The notes under the pieces were generated by a model. It was not told the origin of the DNA. It saw nothing but the letters and a program-made list of their open reading frames with translations, and ran no database searches. 64,000 nucleotides of DNA from an uncultured virus (IMG/VR IMGVR_UViG_3300033141_000684). Its lineage: Duplodnaviria > Heunggongvirae > Uroviricota > Caudoviricetes. Both the position numbers and the translations under genes were made by a program. Every line of letters begins with the position of its first letter. Positions within the stretch are counted from its first letter, which is position 1. The stretch is from IMG/VR virus record IMGVR_UViG_3300033141_000684; one strand, written 5' to 3'. Shown piece by piece: positions 51,834 through 63,068 of the stretch.

Positions 51834-52119
51834 CGGCGTGCTCGTCGTGGTATTTAATGACGTGCTTGCGCACCGCTTCGATCATCTCTTCGCTCACTGG
51901 CAGCTCGCGCAGGGCGTGCATCACCGTTGTATGGTGTCGGTTCACGAAGTAACCGATCGACGGCAGCGAAAGCTCTTGATCACGCAAGAGCCTCATGGCA
52001 AGCCAGCGGGGCGTGACCAGCATCGTCGACCGTGACTTGCCGAGCACTTGCTTCTCAGGCACTCGAAAATAATCGCATACGCCTGCAATGATCAGGCTCG
52101 GGTCTTGTGGTCTCATCAT
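51826..52119 (-). CDS. Stand-alone DnaA domain IV-like HTH protein
   Basis: GKSR...VTPRWLAMRL...LSLPSIG..VNRHHTTVMHA matches the DnaA C-terminal signature (RDHTTV). Confidence 0.85.
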   Translation of the reverse strand: MMRPQDPSLIIAGVCDYFRVPEKQVLGKSRSTMLVTPRWLAMRLLRDQELSLPSIGYFVNRHHTTVMHALRELPVSEEMIEAVRKHVIKYHDEHADD

Positions 52120-53828
52120 TAGAACGGTATCTCGTCTTCGCCGATGCTATCCCAGTCAGGCAGGATAGGCTCGGGCGGTTTTACAGGTTCGAACGCGAAG
52201 TCGTACTTCACGATCCGATCATACTTGCCCTCTTTCCTGACCATGATGCGGCCGGGCTTTTTGAGGTACTCCCGGCCGAGCAAGACGTGCTCAGTCGTGG
52301 ATTCTGCCGACGTCGCCGGGTCGATGCCTCGATCGGTCAGCCAGCGGGTCGCCTTCGTCTTCGCATAGCCTTCATGATCAGGGCAGACCCATTCGTCGAA
52401 GAACTGCAGGCCGCAGCGGTAGGTCACCTTGACCGAGTCAGGCTTGCCGAGCTTCTCGTGCCGGCGGTAGGTCACCTCGTTCACCTCGAACCATTCAGGC
52501 TGAGCCAGTGTCGAGATGATCGCTTGCGTGCTTGCCGTCTCTTCGTGCTTGGGCGGCCAGACATACTGACAATGTGGGCAGATGCGCGCATTGACTGCAA
52601 CGATCGCATGGCAGTCTGGGCACTCTTTCGTCGGGGCCGTGCCGGCGAGTTCGACCTCGCCTGCAACGCCGCCGAGCTTGTCGATAATGTTGATCGTGTC
52701 GACCGGGCCGTGCCGGTTCACATTGCCGGCGAAGTCGAGCACGAGGCAGTCTTGCTTGCCGTTCTCTGGGTTGAGCCGCATGCCTCGGCCGCACATCTGA
52801 ATATAGAGCGCCGCCGACTGAGTCGGTCTCAAGAAAGCGATCAGGTCGCAGATCGGCGCATCGAAGCCGGTCGTCAAGATGTCGCAGTTCGTGAGGCACT
52901 TGATCCTGCCGGCCTTGAACTCTGAGATGATATGCTCGCGCTCATCTTTGGGCGTCTCGCCGTGAAGGCATTCAGAGACGACGCCGTGCCGCGAGCGCAT
53001 GAAGTCAGCGACGTCTTGCGCGTACTCGACGCCAGGGCAGAACACGAGCCAGGCGTTGCGGTCTTGGCCGTACTCGACGATCTCGGCGCAGGCTGCCACC
53101 TTCACGCGGGTCGCCTCGTCGACCATGTCGGACGTCTTGAAGTCGCCGCGCACCGTCTTCATGCCGTCGGTATTCATTCTCTCGACGCCGGCCTTCGAGA
53201 TCAGGGGCACGAGATGGCCTTCGTCGATCAGCCTGGTGATCGGCAGGTTGTAGGCGATGTCAGTGAAGAGCGCGTCGTCGCCAGTATGCAAAAAGCCAGA
53301 GTCGAGCCTGAACGGCGTCGCGCTGAAGCCGATGACCTTGACCTTGTCGTTGATGGTCATCATGTCATCGAGAAAGCGCCGATACATCGTGTCGTTCTTG
53401 GCGGGCACGAGATGCGCTTCGTCGATCGTGATCAGGTCGAACCGGCCGAGCTGGTCGGCCTTGTTGTGCACCGATTGAATGCCGGCGAAGATCATCGGGT
53501 TGAATCGGTCGCGGCGCTTCATGCCGGCGCTGTTGATGCCGATGTCAATCTGCGGGCTGAGCCGCGACATAGTCACCGAGTTCTGCTCTATCAGCTCTTT
53601 GACGTGCGTTAGTGACAGTATGCGCTGGCCCGGCCAGCCGAGAATGACGTCGCTGCAAAAGCTCGCGTGAATGACAGACTTGCCGCCGCCGGTCGGGACA
53701 ACAGCCAGCGGGTGACCGTTGTGCGAAGAGAAGTAATTGAAGAGCGCGTTCTTGCACTCTGATTGATAACCTCGAAGCTGCACTAGGTCATCGCCCTCAA
53801 CTGGTTGGTGAGTTTCGTTCTGAGGCAC
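52119..53828 (-). CDS. SF2 DEAD/DEAH helicase with C-terminal Zn finger (RadD/YejH-like)
   Basis: PTGGGKS, DEAH, SATP, TTGFD, QMCGRGMR, CPDC/CPHC. Confidence 0.93.
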   Translation of the reverse strand: MPQNETHQPVEGDDLVQLRGYQSECKNALFNYFSSHNGHPLAVVPTGGGKSVIHASFCSDVILGWPGQRILSLTHVKELIEQNSVTMSRLSPQIDIGINSAGMKRRDRFNPMIFAGIQSVHNKADQLGRFDLITIDEAHLVPAKNDTMYRRFLDDMMTINDKVKVIGFSATPFRLDSGFLHTGDDALFTDIAYNLPITRLIDEGHLVPLISKAGVERMNTDGMKTVRGDFKTSDMVDEATRVKVAACAEIVEYGQDRNAWLVFCPGVEYAQDVADFMRSRHGVVSECLHGETPKDEREHIISEFKAGRIKCLTNCDILTTGFDAPICDLIAFLRPTQSAALYIQMCGRGMRLNPENGKQDCLVLDFAGNVNRHGPVDTINIIDKLGGVAGEVELAGTAPTKECPDCHAIVAVNARICPHCQYVWPPKHEETASTQAIISTLAQPEWFEVNEVTYRRHEKLGKPDSVKVTYRCGLQFFDEWVCPDHEGYAKTKATRWLTDRGIDPATSAESTTEHVLLGREYLKKPGRIMVRKEGKYDRIVKYDFAFEPVKPPEPILPDWDSIGEDEIPF

Positions 53829-54103
53829 TTCGCTGCAGACGTGGCTGCGGCGAGCTGCGACTCTAAACTCTCAAGGTAGCCGTGCCGCTGTAACAACATT
53901 TCAGCCGCGAGAACGTGCTCGACCTTGATGGCGTGCGGATTCTCAAGCCGGTATCTGATCGCCTGGGTTGAGATTCCGAGGGCGCGAGCGACCTCGATGA
54001 ATCTGGCGTTGTTGGCTCTCGGGTGCGTCTTCGGCAAAGTGTCGGCCAAGCTCTCGACGAGCGTCGCGTACCGATTGCTCAAAGCAATCTGGCTATTTTC
54101 CAT
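53783..54103 (-). CDS. HTH DNA-binding protein
   Basis: EVARALGISTQAIRYRL. Confidence 0.7.
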   Translation of the reverse strand: MENSQIALSNRYATLVESLADTLPKTHPRANNARFIEVARALGISTQAIRYRLENPHAIKVEHVLAAEMLLQRHGYLESLESQLAAATSAAKCLRTKLTNQLRAMT

Positions 54104-54302
54104 GTCTAACGATCCTGAGATGCTTGCGGCCGGCCCCGAAGTCTAGCACTCCATAGCCGTCTGGTATAGCTTGAACGCAGCCGCCTTTCTCAAGAAAGGC
54201 TTGAACGTCTGCCGCGATCTTGTCTCTGACTCGCTGCTTGTTCTCGACCGGGTCTTCTGCCGCGTCTTGCGCGTGCTTGATCGGGCCGCTTGTCGTTGTC
54301 AT
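54093..54302 (-). CDS. SutA-like RNA-polymerase-binding protein
   Basis: VENKQRVRDKIAADVQAFLEKGGCVQAI resembles the SutA core helix and FL..GG.VQ.I motif. Confidence 0.65.
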   Translation of the reverse strand: MTTTSGPIKHAQDAAEDPVENKQRVRDKIAADVQAFLEKGGCVQAIPDGYGVLDFGAGRKHLRIVRHGK

Positions 54303-54331
54303 GGGCGCGAGCCCTTTGCCGAATCTACTGC

Positions 54332-55396
54332 TCATTCTGTTACCTCGTGGGTCTCGATTAGTGTGCCGTTGAACTCTTGCTTCAGCGTGTCGACGACCTC
54401 GTCGCCGATCATGTTCTTCGCGTCTGCCTTGTATATCTCGACCGAGCTGTATCCGGTCGGGCCGTTCTTAAATACCTTGCCGGTGATCTTGTTCGTGTAG
54501 ACGACGTCGTCGTCGATCGCGTCGATCGGCTCTGCCCACGTCTCAAGCATCTGGGGCAAGTAGGCGTGCGAGGCGCAGCCGTTCATCTGCTGATTCTTGT
54601 CGAGCTGCAGGTTGTACTTCTCGCAGAGCCAGGTCGCCTCACCGTCGGGCGCTGCAGTCGCATGCACGCATGACCTGCAGGTCGGGACGGGTGCGGCTTT
54701 AGAATGGCAGGTCGCGCTATGGTCGCAGAAGTTACACTGCCACCATGCCGGGTCGTCAGAGATGCGCGCCGGCGGTTCGACTGACTCGATGATCGTGCGC
54801 GCTCGCTCCATGATCTGCACGAACTCTTTCTTGTTGAATTTGACGCGCTCAATGTAGAGGTCGTCGTCATTCTTGTTGACGGCCATATAGAGCGCCCGGT
54901 CGATTGAGCTGAGGCCCATATAAACCTGCATCTGCGCATAGTGCTCGGGCTTCGACTGCTCGACGCCATCCTTCACGAGTGACTTGAAGCTCTTATCGTT
55001 GTGCGTCTTCATCTCGATAATGTGCGGGCTCTTCGGGGCTTCGGGCACGCCTTCGGTCGCGATGCCGTCACCGCTGCCGCCGAAGTGACCGCCGTGCGCT
55101 GACCATTGCCATTGTTCGCTGGTGCGCGGGTCGATCTCAACGACCTCGACGCCGATGCGCTTCAACTCTTCAACGAAGACCGCCTCTTCTCGCTGGCCTC
55201 GATTGAACAGGCGCAGCACGCGACCGGGAAAGTTCGCGACCGTCGACCATCTGAACGAATACCAGATTGAGCGCGTGCACGGCCGGCCGATGATCGACGC
55301 GCCGAGGTGCTCTCTGAATCCGTTGCCGGCCCGGTCTTCCCAGCTCTTGAAGATCAGGTTGCGCGTGTTGTGCGTTGGCTCGGGCATTACCGCCAT
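54332..55396 (-). CDS. Cas4-like PD-(D/E)XK exonuclease
   Basis: GASIIG.PC.R, GSGDG, EMKT, QMQVYM, CNFC...C Fe-S-type cysteines. Confidence 0.88.
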   Translation of the reverse strand: MAVMPEPTHNTRNLIFKSWEDRAGNGFREHLGASIIGRPCTRSIWYSFRWSTVANFPGRVLRLFNRGQREEAVFVEELKRIGVEVVEIDPRTSEQWQWSAHGGHFGGSGDGIATEGVPEAPKSPHIIEMKTHNDKSFKSLVKDGVEQSKPEHYAQMQVYMGLSSIDRALYMAVNKNDDDLYIERVKFNKKEFVQIMERARTIIESVEPPARISDDPAWWQCNFCDHSATCHSKAAPVPTCRSCVHATAAPDGEATWLCEKYNLQLDKNQQMNGCASHAYLPQMLETWAEPIDAIDDDVVYTNKITGKVFKNGPTGYSSVEIYKADAKNMIGDEVVDTLKQEFNGTLIETHEVTE

Positions 55397-55427
55397 TCGT
55401 TTAACCTCATAAATTCAAACACGTCGC

Positions 55428-56033
55428 TCATGCCGCTCTTCTGCCGAGTATGTTGTGCTCCGGGTCGAAGACGTCGATCAATAGGTATTCTAACTGCGTG
55501 AGCTGCCTGTCAGCGAGGCTCGCGCCGTCGACATACAAGACCCCATCGAAGCATTTGTCTTTAATGTGTTGCCCTGATCTCTGTAATGCGCTCACTCGGC
55601 TTTGACCAATATAGACGACAGTCTCTTCGAGCATGAGCAGGTATATGCCCCTGCCGATGACGGGCGAGCGCGAGAATCTTATCTCTGAGATCGGCCCGCC
55701 TATATCGTAAGGAAAAAACTGATCGCCGTATAACTCGCAGTCTGCTGCGATTGAGACCATTCTGATCTCGGCCTTGATCTGGTCGGCAACGATCTTTCTC
55801 TCGCAATCTTCAGAGCAAGCGAAACGGGCGCTCGACGACGGCGGGCCGTCGTCGTCACTCTCATACTCTCGCAAGTCGCAGGGCGACCACGTCACGAGCG
55901 AAAGCTCGGGCGGATATGGCGCATATAATCTTGACGGGAAAGTTCGCCAACATCCACAACAATGGAGGTCATCGCGAGGGCCGAACTTTTTCGCGGCGCG
56001 ACTACCTTGAAGAACTGCTGGAAGTTTTGCCAT
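55428..56033 (-). CDS. GIY-YIG domain protein
   Basis: GIYLL....VVYIGQS...R..QH...E..LI...P.HN; TGATG coupling to the upstream gene. Confidence 0.7.
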   Translation of the reverse strand: MAKLPAVLQGSRAAKKFGPRDDLHCCGCWRTFPSRLYAPYPPELSLVTWSPCDLREYESDDDGPPSSSARFACSEDCERKIVADQIKAEIRMVSIAADCELYGDQFFPYDIGGPISEIRFSRSPVIGRGIYLLMLEETVVYIGQSRVSALQRSGQHIKDKCFDGVLYVDGASLADRQLTQLEYLLIDVFDPEHNILGRRAA

Positions 56034-57010
56034 CACCAAGCCCTCCAAAGATCTCGCAGCAACCGCTTCTGCACGTAACGGTTCGCTCTGTTGTGAATGT
56101 GGCCGACGCTCATATACAAGTGAGCCTCAGCTTTCGGAATCTGGGCCGCCGGCAAAACGATCAGACCCTTCGCTTCTGCGCGCTCGGTCTCGATCACCTT
56201 GCGGGCGTCGCGGGCGTCGCGGTACTTGTTAGCCTTGCGGGTGAGCGCGTCACCGATGACATACATGAGCGAGCGCCTGAGTGGTGAGTAACCTTGCTCG
56301 ATGCCTCGCTGCCCGGTCATGCGTCGCTGGCGTTCGCCGTTGATCACCGCCAAACCGAACCGTTTCCAGAGCTTCGACTCGTTCGAGTAATTGTCGAGCG
56401 GGCCTGACTCGCCGATGATCATAGCAAGGCCGAGCGGGCCGAAGCCGTTTATCGGCTCGGCAAACTCTTCCCAGACGGGCAGCTCTTTGACGACCTTCTT
56501 GAGTATGCGCTCGCGTCGCTTTTTCTCAGCCGTGAGCGGCTCACGCGCTTCGAGCATGGGGCCGATGTTCGCCGCAGCGATAACACCGAGCGGGTGCTCT
56601 TCGTTCTTGACGACGGCAGTGTAGAGCGCCTGGCCTTCTTTCGTACCGCCAGCAAGTCGCCGGCAGATGGACTTCGCCTGTAGCGTGATTCGCTGCTCTG
56701 CGCCCATCATGTCAGAGCGTGCGCGATGGTGCTCCCGCAGCTCTGCGCATAAGATTGCCCGGCCTAATCTGGTATGGTCGTCTCCGACGGCGCTATAGGG
56801 GGCCGGGCTTGAACCTGCAGCGGAACTAGAAGTTTGGTCGGTTTCGACAATGTAGAATTGACCGCTGCGTGACTGGACGCCTCCCGGCTGGGCGAGCTTT
56901 GATTGGCCCTTCTTAGGCACTACTCGGTCGGCCGGGCCGGGGGCGTTAATAGGGTGAGCGGCAACGCTGAGTTTGGCCGCCTTTGCGGCAATGGTTTTCT
57001 GACCGCTCAT
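56033..57010 (-). CDS. Nop-domain / IS110 C-terminal-like protein with no RuvC domain (TasA-like)
   Basis: Coiled coil, then INGFGPLGLAMIIGE, YSNESKLWKRFGL, YSPLRRSLMY, RANRYVQKRLLRDLW; no DEDD domain and no catalytic SG. Confidence 0.75.
   Translation of the reverse strand: MSGQKTIAAKAAKLSVAAHPINAPGPADRVVPKKGQSKLAQPGGVQSRSGQFYIVETDQTSSSAAGSSPAPYSAVGDDHTRLGRAILCAELREHHRARSDMMGAEQRITLQAKSICRRLAGGTKEGQALYTAVVKNEEHPLGVIAAANIGPMLEAREPLTAEKKRRERILKKVVKELPVWEEFAEPINGFGPLGLAMIIGESGPLDNYSNESKLWKRFGLAVINGERQRRMTGQRGIEQGYSPLRRSLMYVIGDALTRKANKYRDARDARKVIETERAEAKGLIVLPAAQIPKAEAHLYMSVGHIHNRANRYVQKRLLRDLWRAW
56757..57009 (-). ncRNA. Four-unit stem-loop dual-spacer guide array (TIGR-like)
   Basis: Each unit is outer stem-YCN-N9-YG-inner hairpin-CCA-N9/10-NN-outer stem; units at 56955-57009, 56877-56946, 56817-56868, 56757-56808. 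Confidence 0.78.
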
Positions 57011-57525
57011 AATCCGAACCTCGTCGCGAGGTTGCTCAACTGTTGCTCACCGAACACTTCGGCGACCGTGCGGTTACCGACCCGGTAGAGCAGGTTCGCG
57101 TAGAACGCGCCGAGATTGCTCTCGTTGCGGGCTCGATCTTTGTGGTGATCGGCTGCGCGAGAGAGTAAGTCGCGGTTGGCATCACCGAGGCGTGAGCCGT
57201 TGAAGAGCTTCATGTCGAGCATGCTGCGACGGCCGGCTGCGACGAGCGCCGGGTCTGGTTGCCGGGGCTCGATCTTGACGACCTTAGTCGAAGGCGTCGG
57301 CTCTTTGGTGACGACGTCGGTCGCTGGCTTATCTAGCTGCTTGATCAGCTCCCAGATAGCGAGGTCTAACTTCGGGCGCAAGAGCGTCTTAAAGAGAACA
57401 CTGTCGGCCATCACTCGCCGCTCGATCGCTTCGGCGGCTTCGGTTCTGGTCGCTGACTCTTCGATGATTTTAATCGCCATCGAGCGCAGGCGTGTCAGAG
57501 CGAGCGGGTCTTTCTCAGTTTGCAT
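57007..57525 (-). CDS. Hypothetical protein coupled to the TasA-like gene
   Basis: ATGA overlap at 57007-57010. Confidence 0.7.
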   Translation of the reverse strand: MQTEKDPLALTRLRSMAIKIIEESATRTEAAEAIERRVMADSVLFKTLLRPKLDLAIWELIKQLDKPATDVVTKEPTPSTKVVKIEPRQPDPALVAAGRRSMLDMKLFNGSRLGDANRDLLSRAADHHKDRARNESNLGAFYANLLYRVGNRTVAEVFGEQQLSNLATRFGL

Positions 57526-57784
57526 CGCGAACCTCTCTGCGTTCTTCTGCGACGCCTGCGTAATAGTAGCCGGCTTGCTGGGCGGCGTGGTTGCGCTTGT
57601 TGCGCTCAGCGCGTCGGTTGCGCTTGCGGTTCGCCTTTATCTGCATCTCGATCACCGTGTCGGGGCTCGGCTTGGGCGGCATTATTGTGCGACCGCTTGG
57701 CTCGCCGACTGCGCGTTCGAGCGCGTCAGAGATCGCCTTGAAAAAACCGGCCTGGTGTTGCCGTGCAACTTGTTTCTGTTTCAT
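57515..57784 (-). CDS. Small basic protein
   Basis: GCAGGAA RBS; Arg/Lys-rich. Confidence 0.6.
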   Translation of the reverse strand: MKQKQVARQHQAGFFKAISDALERAVGEPSGRTIMPPKPSPDTVIEMQIKANRKRNRRAERNKRNHAAQQAGYYYAGVAEERREVRDAN

Positions 57785-57876
57785 GTTCCTGCCTTTTCGA
57801 CTGTTTGTTGAAGGTTGAAGGGCCGACCGTGGAGGGGTCAGCCGGCCCTTCGGGGCTCAGCTCAAGGGGAGAGCTT

Positions 57877-58416
57877 TTACTGAGCCCATGCCGGCCTGTC
57901 GCCTGCAGCGGGCGCTACTGGCGGGGCCGTATTGGCTACACCCTGAGCGGGTGCGACTGGGGCGGGCGCGGCCTGTTGTCCGACGGGTGTCGGGGCTGCG
58001 CCGCCCATAGCTGGGGCTAGAGCCGACGCCTTGAACTTCTTGATGATGTTCTTGTCGTCGTACTGGCCGGTCTTGTCGACCTCGATGCCGACCGCACCGA
58101 TGAACGGCTTGTCGTGCAACTGCGTGCTATCGCTGACCTGCATCACGCCGACAGCTCGGCAAAGGCCAGACAGCTCGCGCTGACCGATCTCTTCTGCGGT
58201 CGGGTTCTGGTTTGCGATGTTGATGCGGCCGAAAATCTTGCGGCCGGCATACTGACCCTCAAGCACCTCGGCCTCGTATTCGAGATAGTGTCCGGTGCCG
58301 GCCTTGGTCGGCTTGATGTCGGTCGAGCGAATGCAGAGCAAATAGTCGCCTTTCGGGAAGGTATCGTATGAGCTGCTCGGGTCTACTTGGGAAGCGTCAA
58401 AATTCATTTGAGCCAT
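57877..58416 (-). CDS. Single-stranded DNA-binding protein (DUF669-type)
   Basis: PKGDY, KPTKAGTG.YL, GRKIF, LCRAVG, LHDKP, Pro/Ala tail ending PAWA; next to Sak4. Confidence 0.85.
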   Translation of the reverse strand: MAQMNFDASQVDPSSSYDTFPKGDYLLCIRSTDIKPTKAGTGHYLEYEAEVLEGQYAGRKIFGRINIANQNPTAEEIGQRELSGLCRAVGVMQVSDSTQLHDKPFIGAVGIEVDKTGQYDDKNIIKKFKASALAPAMGGAAPTPVGQQAAPAPVAPAQGVANTAPPVAPAAGDRPAWAQ

Positions 58417-58565
58417 TGTTTTTTCACCTATAGGTTGTTGTCAAAAAATGCGTTGCCGTGTTTGTTAGGCCAGACGACGCTGAGCTGCCTGGCTGCATTG
58501 ATCCTCGACGGCTTGAGGCTGAGCGGGTTGGCATGACCCTGCCGAGGTCGCCCGCTCTTTGCTCA

Positions 58566-59384
58566 TTACCCGGCAGCCGCCACCTGATCACCCTCGTCGG
58601 GCGCTGCAGGTTCAGGCTGGGGTTGTGCCGCTGAGGTCTTGCGCGTCAGCGCGAGCGCCTCTTCGAAGGCCTGCCAGTTCAACGGCAGCTCTTCGGGCAG
58701 AGAGTATCGGTTCTTCGCAACAAAGGCCGGCTTCTCGACGGTATACATGACACGCTCGCCGGTCGTAATGCCTCGGGCGCGTGACTTGTTGAAGCCCTGG
58801 TCTTCTTTCAAGACGTGCATCTTGTGATTAGCGAAGAGGATGACATCGACAAGCTCTTGCACCATGCCGTTAGCCCGCTTGTGCAACTTGATGTCGTAGC
58901 GGTCGAAGGCTTCGTGCTCTGGCGATTCGAACTTGAGAATCTGCGCGTGCGCCGTCAGGATCACCGCCATATTCTTGTGATTGCGAAGCGCGTCGAGCAA
59001 CCAGATAATCTGACGCCAATAGACGTCGGCCTCAACATAGCCCTTGCCGTAGCCGGGGCTCTCGATAGAGTCCCAGCCGTGGGCCTCGCAGGTCTTTTGC
59101 CAGACGAGCGGCTCAAGGTGATCGAGCGAGTCGATGACGACGGTCTTATAGTCGTGGTCACCCTCGCCGAGCGCGTTAAGCGCAGAGATGACGTCGTCGT
59201 AGCTCTGAGCTATGCCGAAAGTGTCGATCTCAAGTGAGCCTTCACCGTCTTCGGTTTGAATGAAGATAGGCTTCGGCGCGTTCGCTGCGAACGTCGTCTT
59301 GCCCATGCCGTGCGTCGAATAAATCAACGTGCGCGGCGGTTTGGTGTCGCTAGTGCGACGAATTGAATCGAGGGCGAATGCCAT
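58566..59384 (-). CDS. Sak4-like AAA ATPase / ssDNA annealing protein
   Basis: GMGKTT, TVVIDSLD, GYGKGY, ILTAH, AKNRY. Confidence 0.88.
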   Translation of the reverse strand: MAFALDSIRRTSDTKPPRTLIYSTHGMGKTTFAANAPKPIFIQTEDGEGSLEIDTFGIAQSYDDVISALNALGEGDHDYKTVVIDSLDHLEPLVWQKTCEAHGWDSIESPGYGKGYVEADVYWRQIIWLLDALRNHKNMAVILTAHAQILKFESPEHEAFDRYDIKLHKRANGMVQELVDVILFANHKMHVLKEDQGFNKSRARGITTGERVMYTVEKPAFVAKNRYSLPEELPLNWQAFEEALALTRKTSAAQPQPEPAAPDEGDQVAAAG

Positions 59385-61088: not shown

Positions 61089-63068
61089 ATGACAGAACAG
61101 ACACTCGACCCGAGCGAGTGCGCGCACGACCTCTTCGAAGAAGGGTTGCATGTTTTCCCGATCAAGGCAAAAGGCAAGCGGCCGCTCGTACCCTGGCAGA
61201 CATACCAGACCCGACCGCCCTCTGATGAAGAGTTCGAGGGCTGGGTTAAACGCTGGCCGGGTTGTAACTGGGGGATCGCGACGGGCGTGCAGTTCGTCGT
61301 CGTCGATGCCGATACCGCTGAGGGCGTCGCCTTCATGGAATCGGGCACCGTCACGCGAACACCGCGAAAGGTCACAACAAGCAAAGGGGCGCATTATTAC
61401 TACGCGTTGACCCCAGAATTCACCATTCGAAACGGGACGGGCGACCATCTCGACGTGAGAGGTCAGGGCGGTTATGTCGTCGCTGAGGGCTCGGTTCACG
61501 AGACCGGCTTCGTCTATACCCGAGAGAACCCGTTGCCGGGCGTGCCCGATGGCATGCTTGACCTGCCCTACCTGACCCGCGACGACGTCACGGCGATCAA
61601 TGCGTTCAATACCCGCACCGCCAAGCTAGAACGGCCGCCTGCCTATACAGTCGCCGGCGGGCTGAACTTCGACGCTAGTCTCGTCGACCCCGACGAAGAG
61701 CCTCAAGAGCGCAAGCCGATCTTAGAGCTGCCAGTCACCGAGGGCGGTCGCAACGATCACCTGAAGAGCCTGGTCGGCAAGTGGGCGAATGAGTCGATAC
61801 CTCGCGGCGAGATCATGCAGCGGGCCTTCGACTGGAACGCCAAGAATCACCCCCCGATGTCGACCGATGAGGTCATGAAGACCGTCATGTCGGTGATCAA
61901 CACCATCGAGAACAACGGCCAGATCGTGCCGGTCACCAGCGAGGGGGCGGGGCGAACGACCGCCAAACTCGAAGAGGTGCCGATCTATGACGCCTTCGCG
62001 CTCATGGATGACCCGCGCAAGCTGCCGCCTTACCTGATCAACGGCCTCTTCAGGCAGGGCGACAACGTCGTGCTCGCCGGGCCGCCGAAGTCGATGAAGA
62101 GCTTCTTGCAAGCCGAGCTGATCTACTCGATCGCCTGGGGCGAAGACTTTCTCACCGACTTCGAGGTCGAGAGCGAGGGCAAGCCGGTCGTCTGGATTCA
62201 GGCCGAGATGCCCTGGTACGAGACGCAGCGGCGCTTGCTGGCGCACCCTTTGGCGGTCGAGCGCAAGAACAGCGGCCTACCCTCGAACCTTCACATCACC
62301 GACCGCCTGAAGACGCTGGCGTTCGATGAGCACGGCGTCGAGTATCTGATCGACGAGCTGCTCAAACGGCTTGACGGCGAGATACCGGCGGTTCTGGCGG
62401 TCGACTCGCTCGCCTCGGTCTTCGCAGAAGACAACGAGAACGACAACGCCGACATGCAGTTCTTTCTGCGCAACCGGCTCGGGCGCTTTCGTGAGGTCTT
62501 CGGCGACGATCTGACCATTGTCTTGCTGCACCATAGCAACAAGGGCAAGGTCGCAGACCTGCGAAAAGACCCATTCAATAGCCTGCGCGGGGCGTCTGCT
62601 CTGCGGGGCTGGTACTCGGCCGGTATGGTCATGTTCAAAGAGAACCCGGTCGATCAGCACGCTGAGATTCACTTCGAGATGCGGGGCGAGATGCCCATCG
62701 AGCAGATCAACGTCGAGCTGCAGAATGGTCAACTTCGCCGCTTTGAGAAGCCTGACGTCGACAGCGACGCGATGGTTATGTCAAGTTACGAGCAGGAATT
62801 CTTGAACGCCGTGAAGGTGTTCGAGAAGGATGGCCGGCCATTGACGACGGCCAAAACTGGCGGCGGTCCATTCGCGCCGAGAGAGATCACGCTCTTCAAG
62901 AAGGTCAAAAAGGGCACCGCGTTCAACAAACGGCTGCGGGTTTATGAAGAGGCAATGCACAACTTAATTGACCAAGGTAAGCTCGAAGTAGTCGACATGT
63001 CATCGAAGCGGGGCGGCCTTAGCCGGCAGCTCTTTATCGCTGATAGTAATAAGAACGAAGAGGCTTAG
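61089..63068 (+). CDS. Primase-polymerase fused to PriCT and a RepA-type AAA helicase
   Basis: NWGIATG, VVDAD, GAHYYY, DVRGQGGYVV; EGGRND; GPPKSMKS, VDSL, LHHSNK, LRGAS. Confidence 0.92.
   Translation: MTEQTLDPSECAHDLFEEGLHVFPIKAKGKRPLVPWQTYQTRPPSDEEFEGWVKRWPGCNWGIATGVQFVVVDADTAEGVAFMESGTVTRTPRKVTTSKGAHYYYALTPEFTIRNGTGDHLDVRGQGGYVVAEGSVHETGFVYTRENPLPGVPDGMLDLPYLTRDDVTAINAFNTRTAKLERPPAYTVAGGLNFDASLVDPDEEPQERKPILELPVTEGGRNDHLKSLVGKWANESIPRGEIMQRAFDWNAKNHPPMSTDEVMKTVMSVINTIENNGQIVPVTSEGAGRTTAKLEEVPIYDAFALMDDPRKLPPYLINGLFRQGDNVVLAGPPKSMKSFLQAELIYSIAWGEDFLTDFEVESEGKPVVWIQAEMPWYETQRRLLAHPLAVERKNSGLPSNLHITDRLKTLAFDEHGVEYLIDELLKRLDGEIPAVLAVDSLASVFAEDNENDNADMQFFLRNRLGRFREVFGDDLTIVLLHHSNKGKVADLRKDPFNSLRGASALRGWYSAGMVMFKENPVDQHAEIHFEMRGEMPIEQINVELQNGQLRRFEKPDVDSDAMVMSSYEQEFLNAVKVFEKDGRPLTTAKTGGGPFAPREITLFKKVKKGTAFNKRLRVYEEAMHNLIDQGKLEVVDMSSKRGGLSRQLFIADSNKNEEA

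Follow-up and report, generated by a model that had tools for sequence, protein, structure and literature searches.

Genomic Context of the tasA Locus

The stretch of DNA analyzed here (the window) comprises 64,000 nt of an uncultured virus of the Caudoviricetes (IMG/VR record IMGVR_UViG_3300033141_000684). On its minus strand, positions 56033..57010 contain an open reading frame (ORF) of 325 aa, termed tasA, whose frame is free of stop codons for 325 codons, down to position 56033, and whose predicted product consists of a disordered tail (approximately residues 1-76), coiled-coil helices and a C-terminal Nop-type RNA-binding domain. The start codon of tasA shares letters with the stop codon of the upstream ORF: ATG at 57010-57008 and TGA at 57009-57007 form an ATGA junction (57007..57010, minus strand). 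This overlap, which a first-pass annotation of the locus had noted, is read directly from 57010-57007. The sequence GAGG is located 8 nt 5' of the ATG.

The upstream ORF (57007..57525, minus strand) encodes 172 aa, matches no Pfam or PHROG family and is probably translationally coupled to tasA. A homologous ORF was found beside tasA in the related locus L004 (42% identity) and, weakly, in L053, L069 and L049, and may represent a companion gene of this TasA clade. At its 3' end, tasA is overlapped by 16 nt by an ORF of 206 aa (55428..56048, minus strand). This ORF matches no family, and the identical contigs L001-L003 are the only ones in which it was found.

The gene is situated within a phage replication and recombination module (52119-59384 on the minus strand and 61089-63068 on the plus strand). 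Its minus-strand genes include a Sak4-like annealase (58566-59384), a DUF669 SSB-like protein (57877-58416), a Cas4-domain exonuclease (54332-55396) and a helicase (52119-53828), while a divergent primase-like gene occupies 61089-63068 on the plus strand. A consensus-level scan of the minus strand identified no sigma-70-like promoter or terminator within or beside the guide array described below, which fits co-transcription within the leftward operon. Searches of the window against Rfam returned nothing relevant, as the matches to 6C, asX3 and other families all remained below the gathering score. The 6C match, located in the gap after the DUF669 gene (57813-57889, minus strand; 31 bits against a gathering score of 47, E 0.15), is probably due to chance.

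Contigs at least 99% identical to positions 56000-57600 occur in several public runs labelled as sediment or hydrothermal-vent metagenomes, so that the phage or its host seems to be widespread in such samples. Over this interval, such contigs from four public DNA runs exhibited neither insertions or deletions nor substitutions within the array.

Family and Predicted Structure of the tasA Product

The tasA product belongs to a large family, for which a word-indexed search identified 188 matches and which comprises 2,710 cluster representatives at an E-value of 0.001 or better. Most family matches start near query residues 75-90, and an alignment of 30 members revealed a conserved core beginning at approximately residue 85, whereas the length of the N-terminal extension in relatives varies from 0 to about 250 aa. 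The same alignment shows an invariant R98 and the nearly invariant residues E93, R96 and D100, every one of them upstream of M101, the next in-frame methionine.

Domain searches returned a sub-threshold match to Transposase_20 in Pfam (PF02371, E 0.033) and a match of residues 163-325 to phrog_4285, annotated “transposase,” in PHROGs (E 3e-19), and a tblastn search among phages identified only distant relatives labelled as hypothetical protein or transposase. Neither Pfam nor PHROGs assigned an HNH or RuvC nuclease family to the product, and Pfam gave no match to the N-terminal DEDD RuvC-like domain (PF01548), the N-terminus being modelled as disordered. A profile built from 30 family members and compared with the PDB matched chain 9mty_A, a TasR protein, with an E-value of 1.8e-17.

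An AlphaFold2 model based on the 30-member alignment reached a mean pLDDT of 84, with values of about 40 for residues 1-70 and of at least 95 from residue 81, and displays helices at residues 77-120 and 142-174 followed by a compact C-terminal domain. This pattern suggests that the first 75-85 residues are disordered and that M101 lies inside a helix, which bears out two earlier statements on this sequence, namely that the open frame yields about 85 disordered-looking residues and that the next in-frame ATG, at 56710, falls into a helical region. A Foldseek search with this model ranked 9MTY (“TIGR-TasR in complex with tigRNA and target DNA”) first with an E-value of 4e-7. The ten best matches were exclusively TasR or TasH chains (E 4e-7 to 4e-4), and the TasH-tigRNA complexes were followed by the IS621 recombinase (E 6e-3) and then by Prp31 and Nop5. 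Profile similarity and predicted fold thus identify the tasA product as a homolog of Tas proteins of solved structure, possessing a coiled coil and an RNA-binding domain of the Nop type. As it carries no nuclease domain, it is assigned to TasA, the nuclease-less Tas subtype.

Stem-Loop Units Within tasA Codons 1-85

Folding of positions 56745-57015 (minus strand) with RNAfold predicted four consecutive stem-loops with a free energy of -99.1 kcal/mol (z = -2.58), which was equalled by 2 of 200 shuffled sequences. The outer stems are GC-rich, 6-8 bp long and different in sequence in each of the four units. In units 1, 3 and 4, the stem encloses a segment of 12-13 nt, a mini-hairpin of 4-5 bp with a tetraloop and a second segment of 12-13 nt that opens with CAAAC or CAUAC. 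All four units can be parsed into a common layout of variable stem, box C, 9-nt spacer A, box D, small hairpin, box C, 9-nt spacer B and box D, with near-canonical boxes in units 1 and 3.

Unit 1 (56955..57009, minus strand) exhibits a stem of 8 bp formed by 57009-57002 and 56962-56955, and contains spacer A at 56999-56991, an inner hairpin of 5 bp and spacer B at 56973-56965. The 5' arm of its stem starts at the second letter of the tasA start codon, so that it includes two letters of the ATG and covers the entire stop codon of the upstream gene. Unit 2 (56883..56936, minus strand) forms an imperfect stem of 14 bp around spacer A (56928-56920) and spacer B (56903-56895), and its outer box letters are degenerate, with CCG and CG instead of CCA and UG. 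Unit 3 (56817..56868, minus strand) is composed of a 7-bp stem, spacer A at 56858-56850, an inner hairpin of 4 bp with a tetraloop and spacer B at 56834-56826. In unit 4 (56757..56808, minus strand), an 8-bp stem encloses spacer A (56798-56790) and spacer B (56774-56766). Its box letters are degenerate as well, and its 3' end coincides with the position at which the conserved protein core begins.

A covariance model (R1) built only from units of other loci was run over both strands of the 64 kb with filters switched off. Its best match in the whole window was unit 3 (19.6 bits, E 0.022), followed by unit 1 (18.1 bits, E 0.052), while the remaining 30 matches listed for the window represent truncated GC hairpins. 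Units 2 and 4, with their degenerate box letters, were not recovered by this model on either strand of the window, and may, judging by these letters, be decaying guide units.

Repeat detection gave a different picture, as TRF and a repeat finder reported neither a repeat family nor an array over 56750-57010. The array escapes these programs because its stems vary from unit to unit. The same searches led to the rejection of a CRISPR array at 56750-57010, since no conserved direct repeats separate the spacers. A relaxed regular-expression scan for units produced 35 and 91 matches on the two strands of the window and was discarded as too permissive. A search of the 64-kb window for spacer targets, which covered either orientation and allowed gaps of 0-2, yielded no credible target; the best match showed three mismatches and a gap, which is about the level expected by chance.

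Stem-Loop Units in Related Loci

Eighty loci were taken from viral contigs, three of which (L001-L003) are identical to the window. A hairpin scan defined the canonical unit of the family as a variable stem of 5-18 bp closing a loop of exactly 30 nt, and 86 units yielded the gapless consensus stem-CCA-N9-UG-AUAC-CCA-N9-UG-stem, in which the four-nucleotide linker reads AUAC. The loop from UG to CCA between the spacers amounts to 9 nt in the relatives, whereas the units of the window carry inner hairpins of 4-5 bp. This consensus reproduces the box C/box D layout given by Faure et al. (2025; PMC12045711), according to whom a TIGR unit contains two spacers of 8-12 nt, each situated between a box C (CCA) and a box D (UG); on this basis, the units are identified as TIGR stem-loop guides. 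The same study describes a second, stem-loop type of array, in which variable palindromes take the place of edge repeats and which accompanies TasA, mostly in phages. The terms “guide array” and “effector,” which had been applied to the window earlier, can therefore be specified as a TIGR stem-loop array and a TasA protein.

Several lines of evidence indicate that the hairpins are elements of the RNA. When the loop motif served as the sole anchor and no stem was required, 121 distinct sense matches were obtained against 22 antisense matches. The flanks of the sense matches were paired in 85-95% of cases at positions 1-7; their contiguous stem averaged 7.3 bp and reached at least 5 bp in 91 of the 121, compared with averages of 0.36 bp in the antisense matches and 0.91 bp when the flanks were shifted by 3 nt. 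In the alignment of 86 units, all eight stem pairs were found changed on both sides, and the covariation score was 0.825 compared with 0.184 in shuffles, a value reached by none of 500 shuffles; the percentage of paired positions in these 86 units is partly built in, because they were chosen for at least six paired flanking positions. Strict units are clustered around tas and number 0-18 per locus on the sense strand vs. 0-2 on the antisense strand.

In addition, units also occur outside the ORF, in all three phases and with in-frame stop codons, for example at +909 to +1122 in L051 and at +715 to +894 in L068, and further units outside the ORF are located at -510 and -460 in L064. The hairpins are therefore regarded as nucleic-acid elements whose guide function does not require translation. 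Taken together, strand specificity, co-variation of the stems and the location of some units, together with stops, outside the ORF identify them as RNA-level elements. Stops in the arrays of homologs had initially been regarded as an argument against a translated array. Some relatives do contain them, in units outside the ORF, which means that guides can dispense with translation and does not undo dual coding at the window locus.

The arrangement of the units varies considerably between loci. In L053 and L038, the N-terminal extension contains an exact tandem array of five units with a period of 111 nt, and the arms of the units form inverted repeats, with a compensating change distinguishing one locus from the other. 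In these arrays (L053, 2485-2997; L038, 2473-2979), which share the spacing of 111 nt, equivalent to 37 codons, an additional outer stem is conserved, as are the internal loops, and their appearance suggests recent duplication or homogenization. The longest embedded array in this set was observed in L032 (1986-2985), where about 20 consecutive units lie in a single open N-terminal extension of 350 codons. Canonical units are also located in frame inside the tas body, between conserved blocks, as in L047 (core +218), L064 (core +188 and +239) and L012 (core +22, +69 and +120). A search of four array-rich relative loci against Rfam did not identify a matching family. The sequence CTT was present within 8 nt of the stem on the 3' side in 35 of 194 units and on the 5' side in 23 of them, the background frequency being 9.5%; its only occurrence near a stem base of the window follows unit 4.

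Reading Phase and Probable Translation of the Array

The 255-nt array stretch of the window (56756-57010) contains no stop codon in the frame of tasA and three to five in each of the other five frames, so that the earlier statement that the frame remains open through all four units (hairpins predicted at 56757-57009) is confirmed. Since frame 0 also stays open in 8.3% of mononucleotide shuffles of this stretch, the open frame of the window locus alone is not significant. The GC content at third codon positions (GC3) is 0.60 in tasA codons 1-85, lower than in the remainder of the gene (0.75) and in the upstream ORF (0.73), which fits the idea that RNA constraints override codon choice in this segment.

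Within codons 1-101, the only in-frame ATG, GTG or TTG codons are ATG 57010, GTG 56920 (codon 31) and ATG 56710 (codon 101), and none of the three occurs between codon 31 and the conserved core. GTG 56920, which consists of the last letter of a spacer A and the following box D, is a candidate start, in which case units 3 and 4 would still be translated. ATG 56710 (56708..56710, minus strand; M101) is the start of the public gene call P0001 of 225 aa. It lacks a Shine-Dalgarno-like motif and is located downstream of conserved residues and within helix 77-120. As initiation at M101 would remove these residues and half of a confidently modelled helix, P0001 appears truncated, and its start has probably been mis-called at the cost of the N-terminus.

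The relation between units and reading frame was analyzed in 55 of the 80 loci, comprising 194 strict units; the other 25 were left out, being identical duplicates or having a tblastn match that started beyond residue 12 of the core. Almost half of the units (94/194) precede the core in the stretch that is open in the tas frame, 31 lie further inside the ORF, in its core or C-terminal part, 29 upstream of the open stretch and 26 downstream of the stop, while 14 straddle a boundary. The core is preceded within 1 kb by 128 units, 94 of which belong to the open stretch; in these 128, phases 0, 1 and 2 are represented by 51, 12 and 65 units, respectively, corresponding to a depletion of phase 1 with a binomial p of 2e-10. 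When one unit per locus, the one nearest to the core, was counted, the distribution was 27, 1 and 7 (n=35, p 1.3e-5). Both p-values overstate independence, because loci and units are related. Units downstream of the stop were distributed evenly (9, 8 and 9).

Phase 1 is the phase in which box D and the A that usually follows it read UGA, so embedded units may be confined to two of the three phases for this reason. Its avoidance by upstream units across relatives reveals selection against the stop-creating phase and supports dual coding. It had been proposed from the window alone that changes in the spacers must avoid stop codons. The phase bias agrees with this idea in general terms, but the stop that is avoided is formed by box D and the adjacent A, not by the spacers.

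Among the 30 loci whose open stretch contains units, 17 have one or more units lying entirely beyond the last ATG, GTG or TTG that could serve as a start, which argues for translation. In five this codon falls inside a unit, and in eight, which argues against it, a start codon is situated between the array and the core. In L004, the closest relative, whose core is 57% identical and which shares the gene order and the homologous upstream ORF (42% identity), the ATGA junction is kept although the array has diverged. The start codon is located at most 3 nt from the first stem in four of the 82 in-frame ATGs listed (L001, L009, L030 and L053), whereas the others listed are mostly 15-60 nt away. 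It lies 1-2 nt from a stem in L030, L053 and L009 and within the first stem in the window. As this proximity is not general, occlusion of the start codon can be considered only as a local hypothesis.

These observations argue indirectly for the earlier claim that the array is translated as the N-terminus of its own effector. Core residues are encoded upstream of M101, no ATG, GTG or TTG occurs between codon 31 and the core, the ATGA junction is conserved in L004 and phase 1 is avoided in relatives. ATG 57010 would accordingly be the start codon in use, and dual coding at the window locus is likely.

Alternative Explanations

The array might instead represent an untranslated leader that is open by chance, with TasA synthesized from GTG 56920, from a non-canonical codon near 56755 or from M101. 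The public gene call from M101, the frequency of open frames among shuffles, the low GC3 of codons 1-85 and the retention of units outside the ORF in some relatives are all compatible with such a leader. However, a start at M101 would sacrifice the invariant R98 together with the nearly invariant E93, R96 and D100, cut through helix 77-120 and lack a Shine-Dalgarno-like motif, and GTG 56920 is merely the junction of a spacer and box D. The ATGA junction has been kept in L004 despite divergence of the array, and the family-wide phase bias argues against a chance opening, which renders an untranslated leader improbable.

A recurring peptide motif in the N-terminal extensions of relatives (G-Q/H...D-T/A-Q/H...A-A-G) could suggest that the repeats are a feature of the protein and that the hairpins are a by-product. 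This motif is nothing but the translation of stem arms and box letters. The stems co-vary while the peptide changes, units are restricted to the sense strand and also occur outside ORFs in all three phases and with stops, and the region is modelled as disordered; a selected protein repeat is therefore regarded as extremely improbable. The hairpins might also act at the level of DNA, either as single-strand hairpins or as iteron-like origin sites within a gene of the replication module. The neighboring genes for Sak4-like, DUF669 SSB, Cas4-like exonuclease, helicase and primase proteins would suit such a role, and strand-specific hairpins could operate in single-stranded DNA, too. Yet the layout of the units follows the published box C/box D grammar of tigRNAs, the protein is a Tas homolog by sequence and fold, and small-RNA sequencing has shown that homologous arrays are expressed and that Tas proteins bind them (PMC12045711; 10.64898/2026.09.09.750476). 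A function as DNA sites is thus considered very unlikely.

Model of an Intragenic TIGR-TasA System

TIGR-TasA systems are CRISPR-like and bind DNA under the guidance of RNA. The locus is probably such a system, of the stem-loop type, whose array is contained within tasA codons 1-85 and whose RNA serves both as guide precursor and as coding sequence. In this model, a stem-loop TIGR-TasA system resides in a phage replication and recombination operon, and TasA would act as a dimer-forming Nop-domain protein that has no nuclease and binds small guide RNAs (tigRNAs). Through its two spacers of 9 nt, each tigRNA would base-pair with a DNA target, one spacer on either strand. The four guide units occupy codons 1-85 of tasA instead of a separate non-coding array, so that the same stretch of transcript would be guide precursor and coding sequence at once, and translation of the array would produce a disordered tail that is dispensable for the fold. 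The units are presumed to be processed into tigRNAs, and TasA is expected to repress its DNA targets, in line with the RNA-guided transcriptional repression by a TasA shown by Xu et al. (bioRxiv 10.64898/2026.09.09.750476, Sept 2026). That preprint leaves open whether intragenic RNAs are cut out of the tas transcript or arise from internal promoters, and it names a conserved CUU at the base of the stem as the site of processing.

A more speculative extension, to which we would give an outside chance, is that the guide array is also a translational operator for its own effector TasA. As the 5' arm of unit 1 covers letters of the start codon and the upstream stop, folding, binding of TasA or excision of the unit would block the coupled translation of tasA, so that the level of TasA would depend on how much free guide precursor is present. 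This effect would add to the loss of mRNA upon guide processing, from which a negative autoregulation had been proposed earlier. Such an operator would resemble the hairpin bound by the MS2 coat protein.

Within an RNA-guided system that has been described only recently, the locus provides a clean natural example of one RNA stretch with two roles, guide precursor and coding sequence. It also illustrates that such arrays defeat standard programs for gene calling as well as for repeat finding, given the public call cut at M101 and the blindness of TRF to the units. The phase rule, i.e., the avoidance of box D as UGA, offers a simple sequence test for selection on the translation of embedded guides. 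It is not stated in the searched text of Xu et al. (10.64898/2026.09.09.750476), whose supplements or TIGRSafari may carry it.

Comparison With Known Systems

The general phenomenon has already been described, as Xu et al. (10.64898/2026.09.09.750476) report stem-loop arrays that are located inside the tas coding sequence, leave the frame unbroken and correspond to disordered regions of the protein. The window is a further locus of this intragenic stem-loop TIGR-TasA type, unreported in the searched text of that preprint, and the gain from its analysis consists in confirmation and detail, not in discovery. With BlTasA and the intragenic TIGR arrays of that study, it shares in-frame units at the 5' end, a disordered region and a nuclease-less TasA. 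The units of the window represent the variant with a small hairpin between the spacers, corresponding to the clades for which Xu et al. describe a secondary hairpin as the inter-spacer loop. In contrast to the arrays described there, the present one belongs to a different locus from an environmental phage, all four detectable units lie within coding sequence, the stem of unit 1 shares letters with the start codon and with the stop of the upstream gene, and the CUU is not evident. For BlTasA, moreover, the experimentally demonstrated case described is internal (a wedge loop), whereas the array of the window is N-terminal.

PlTasA (PMC12045711, Fig. 7) resembles the window system in being a solo Nop-domain TasA accompanied by variable palindromic stems. 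Its N-terminal loop is unresolved in the cryo-EM work of the Taylor laboratory (preprint 10.64898/2026.08.11.744272), comparable to the disordered N-terminus predicted here. The PlTasA arrays are described as sub-arrays beside the gene, whereas the window array is situated within the ORF.

The dual-repeat TasR and TasH systems (9MTY, 9W03) have the Nop and coiled-coil fold, tandem 9-nt spacers and CCA/UG boxes in common with the window system. They differ by conserved edge and loop repeats, tigRNAs of 36 nt and a RuvC or HNH nuclease, while the system of the window exhibits variable stems and no nuclease. IS110 bridge recombinases (IS621; 8WT6, 8WT9) likewise combine an RNA-binding Tnp/Nop-like domain with two guide segments; however, the window shows neither a DEDD RuvC domain nor transposon ends, and its RNA is an array of single-loop units in place of the two-loop bridge RNA of IS110.

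A formal parallel is provided by the origin of phage lambda, whose iterons lie within gene O and are binding sites in double-stranded DNA. In both phages, a repeated nucleic-acid element is accommodated in frame in the part of a gene that encodes a flexible protein segment, but the lambda iterons are DNA sites, whereas the elements of the window are RNA hairpins with guides.
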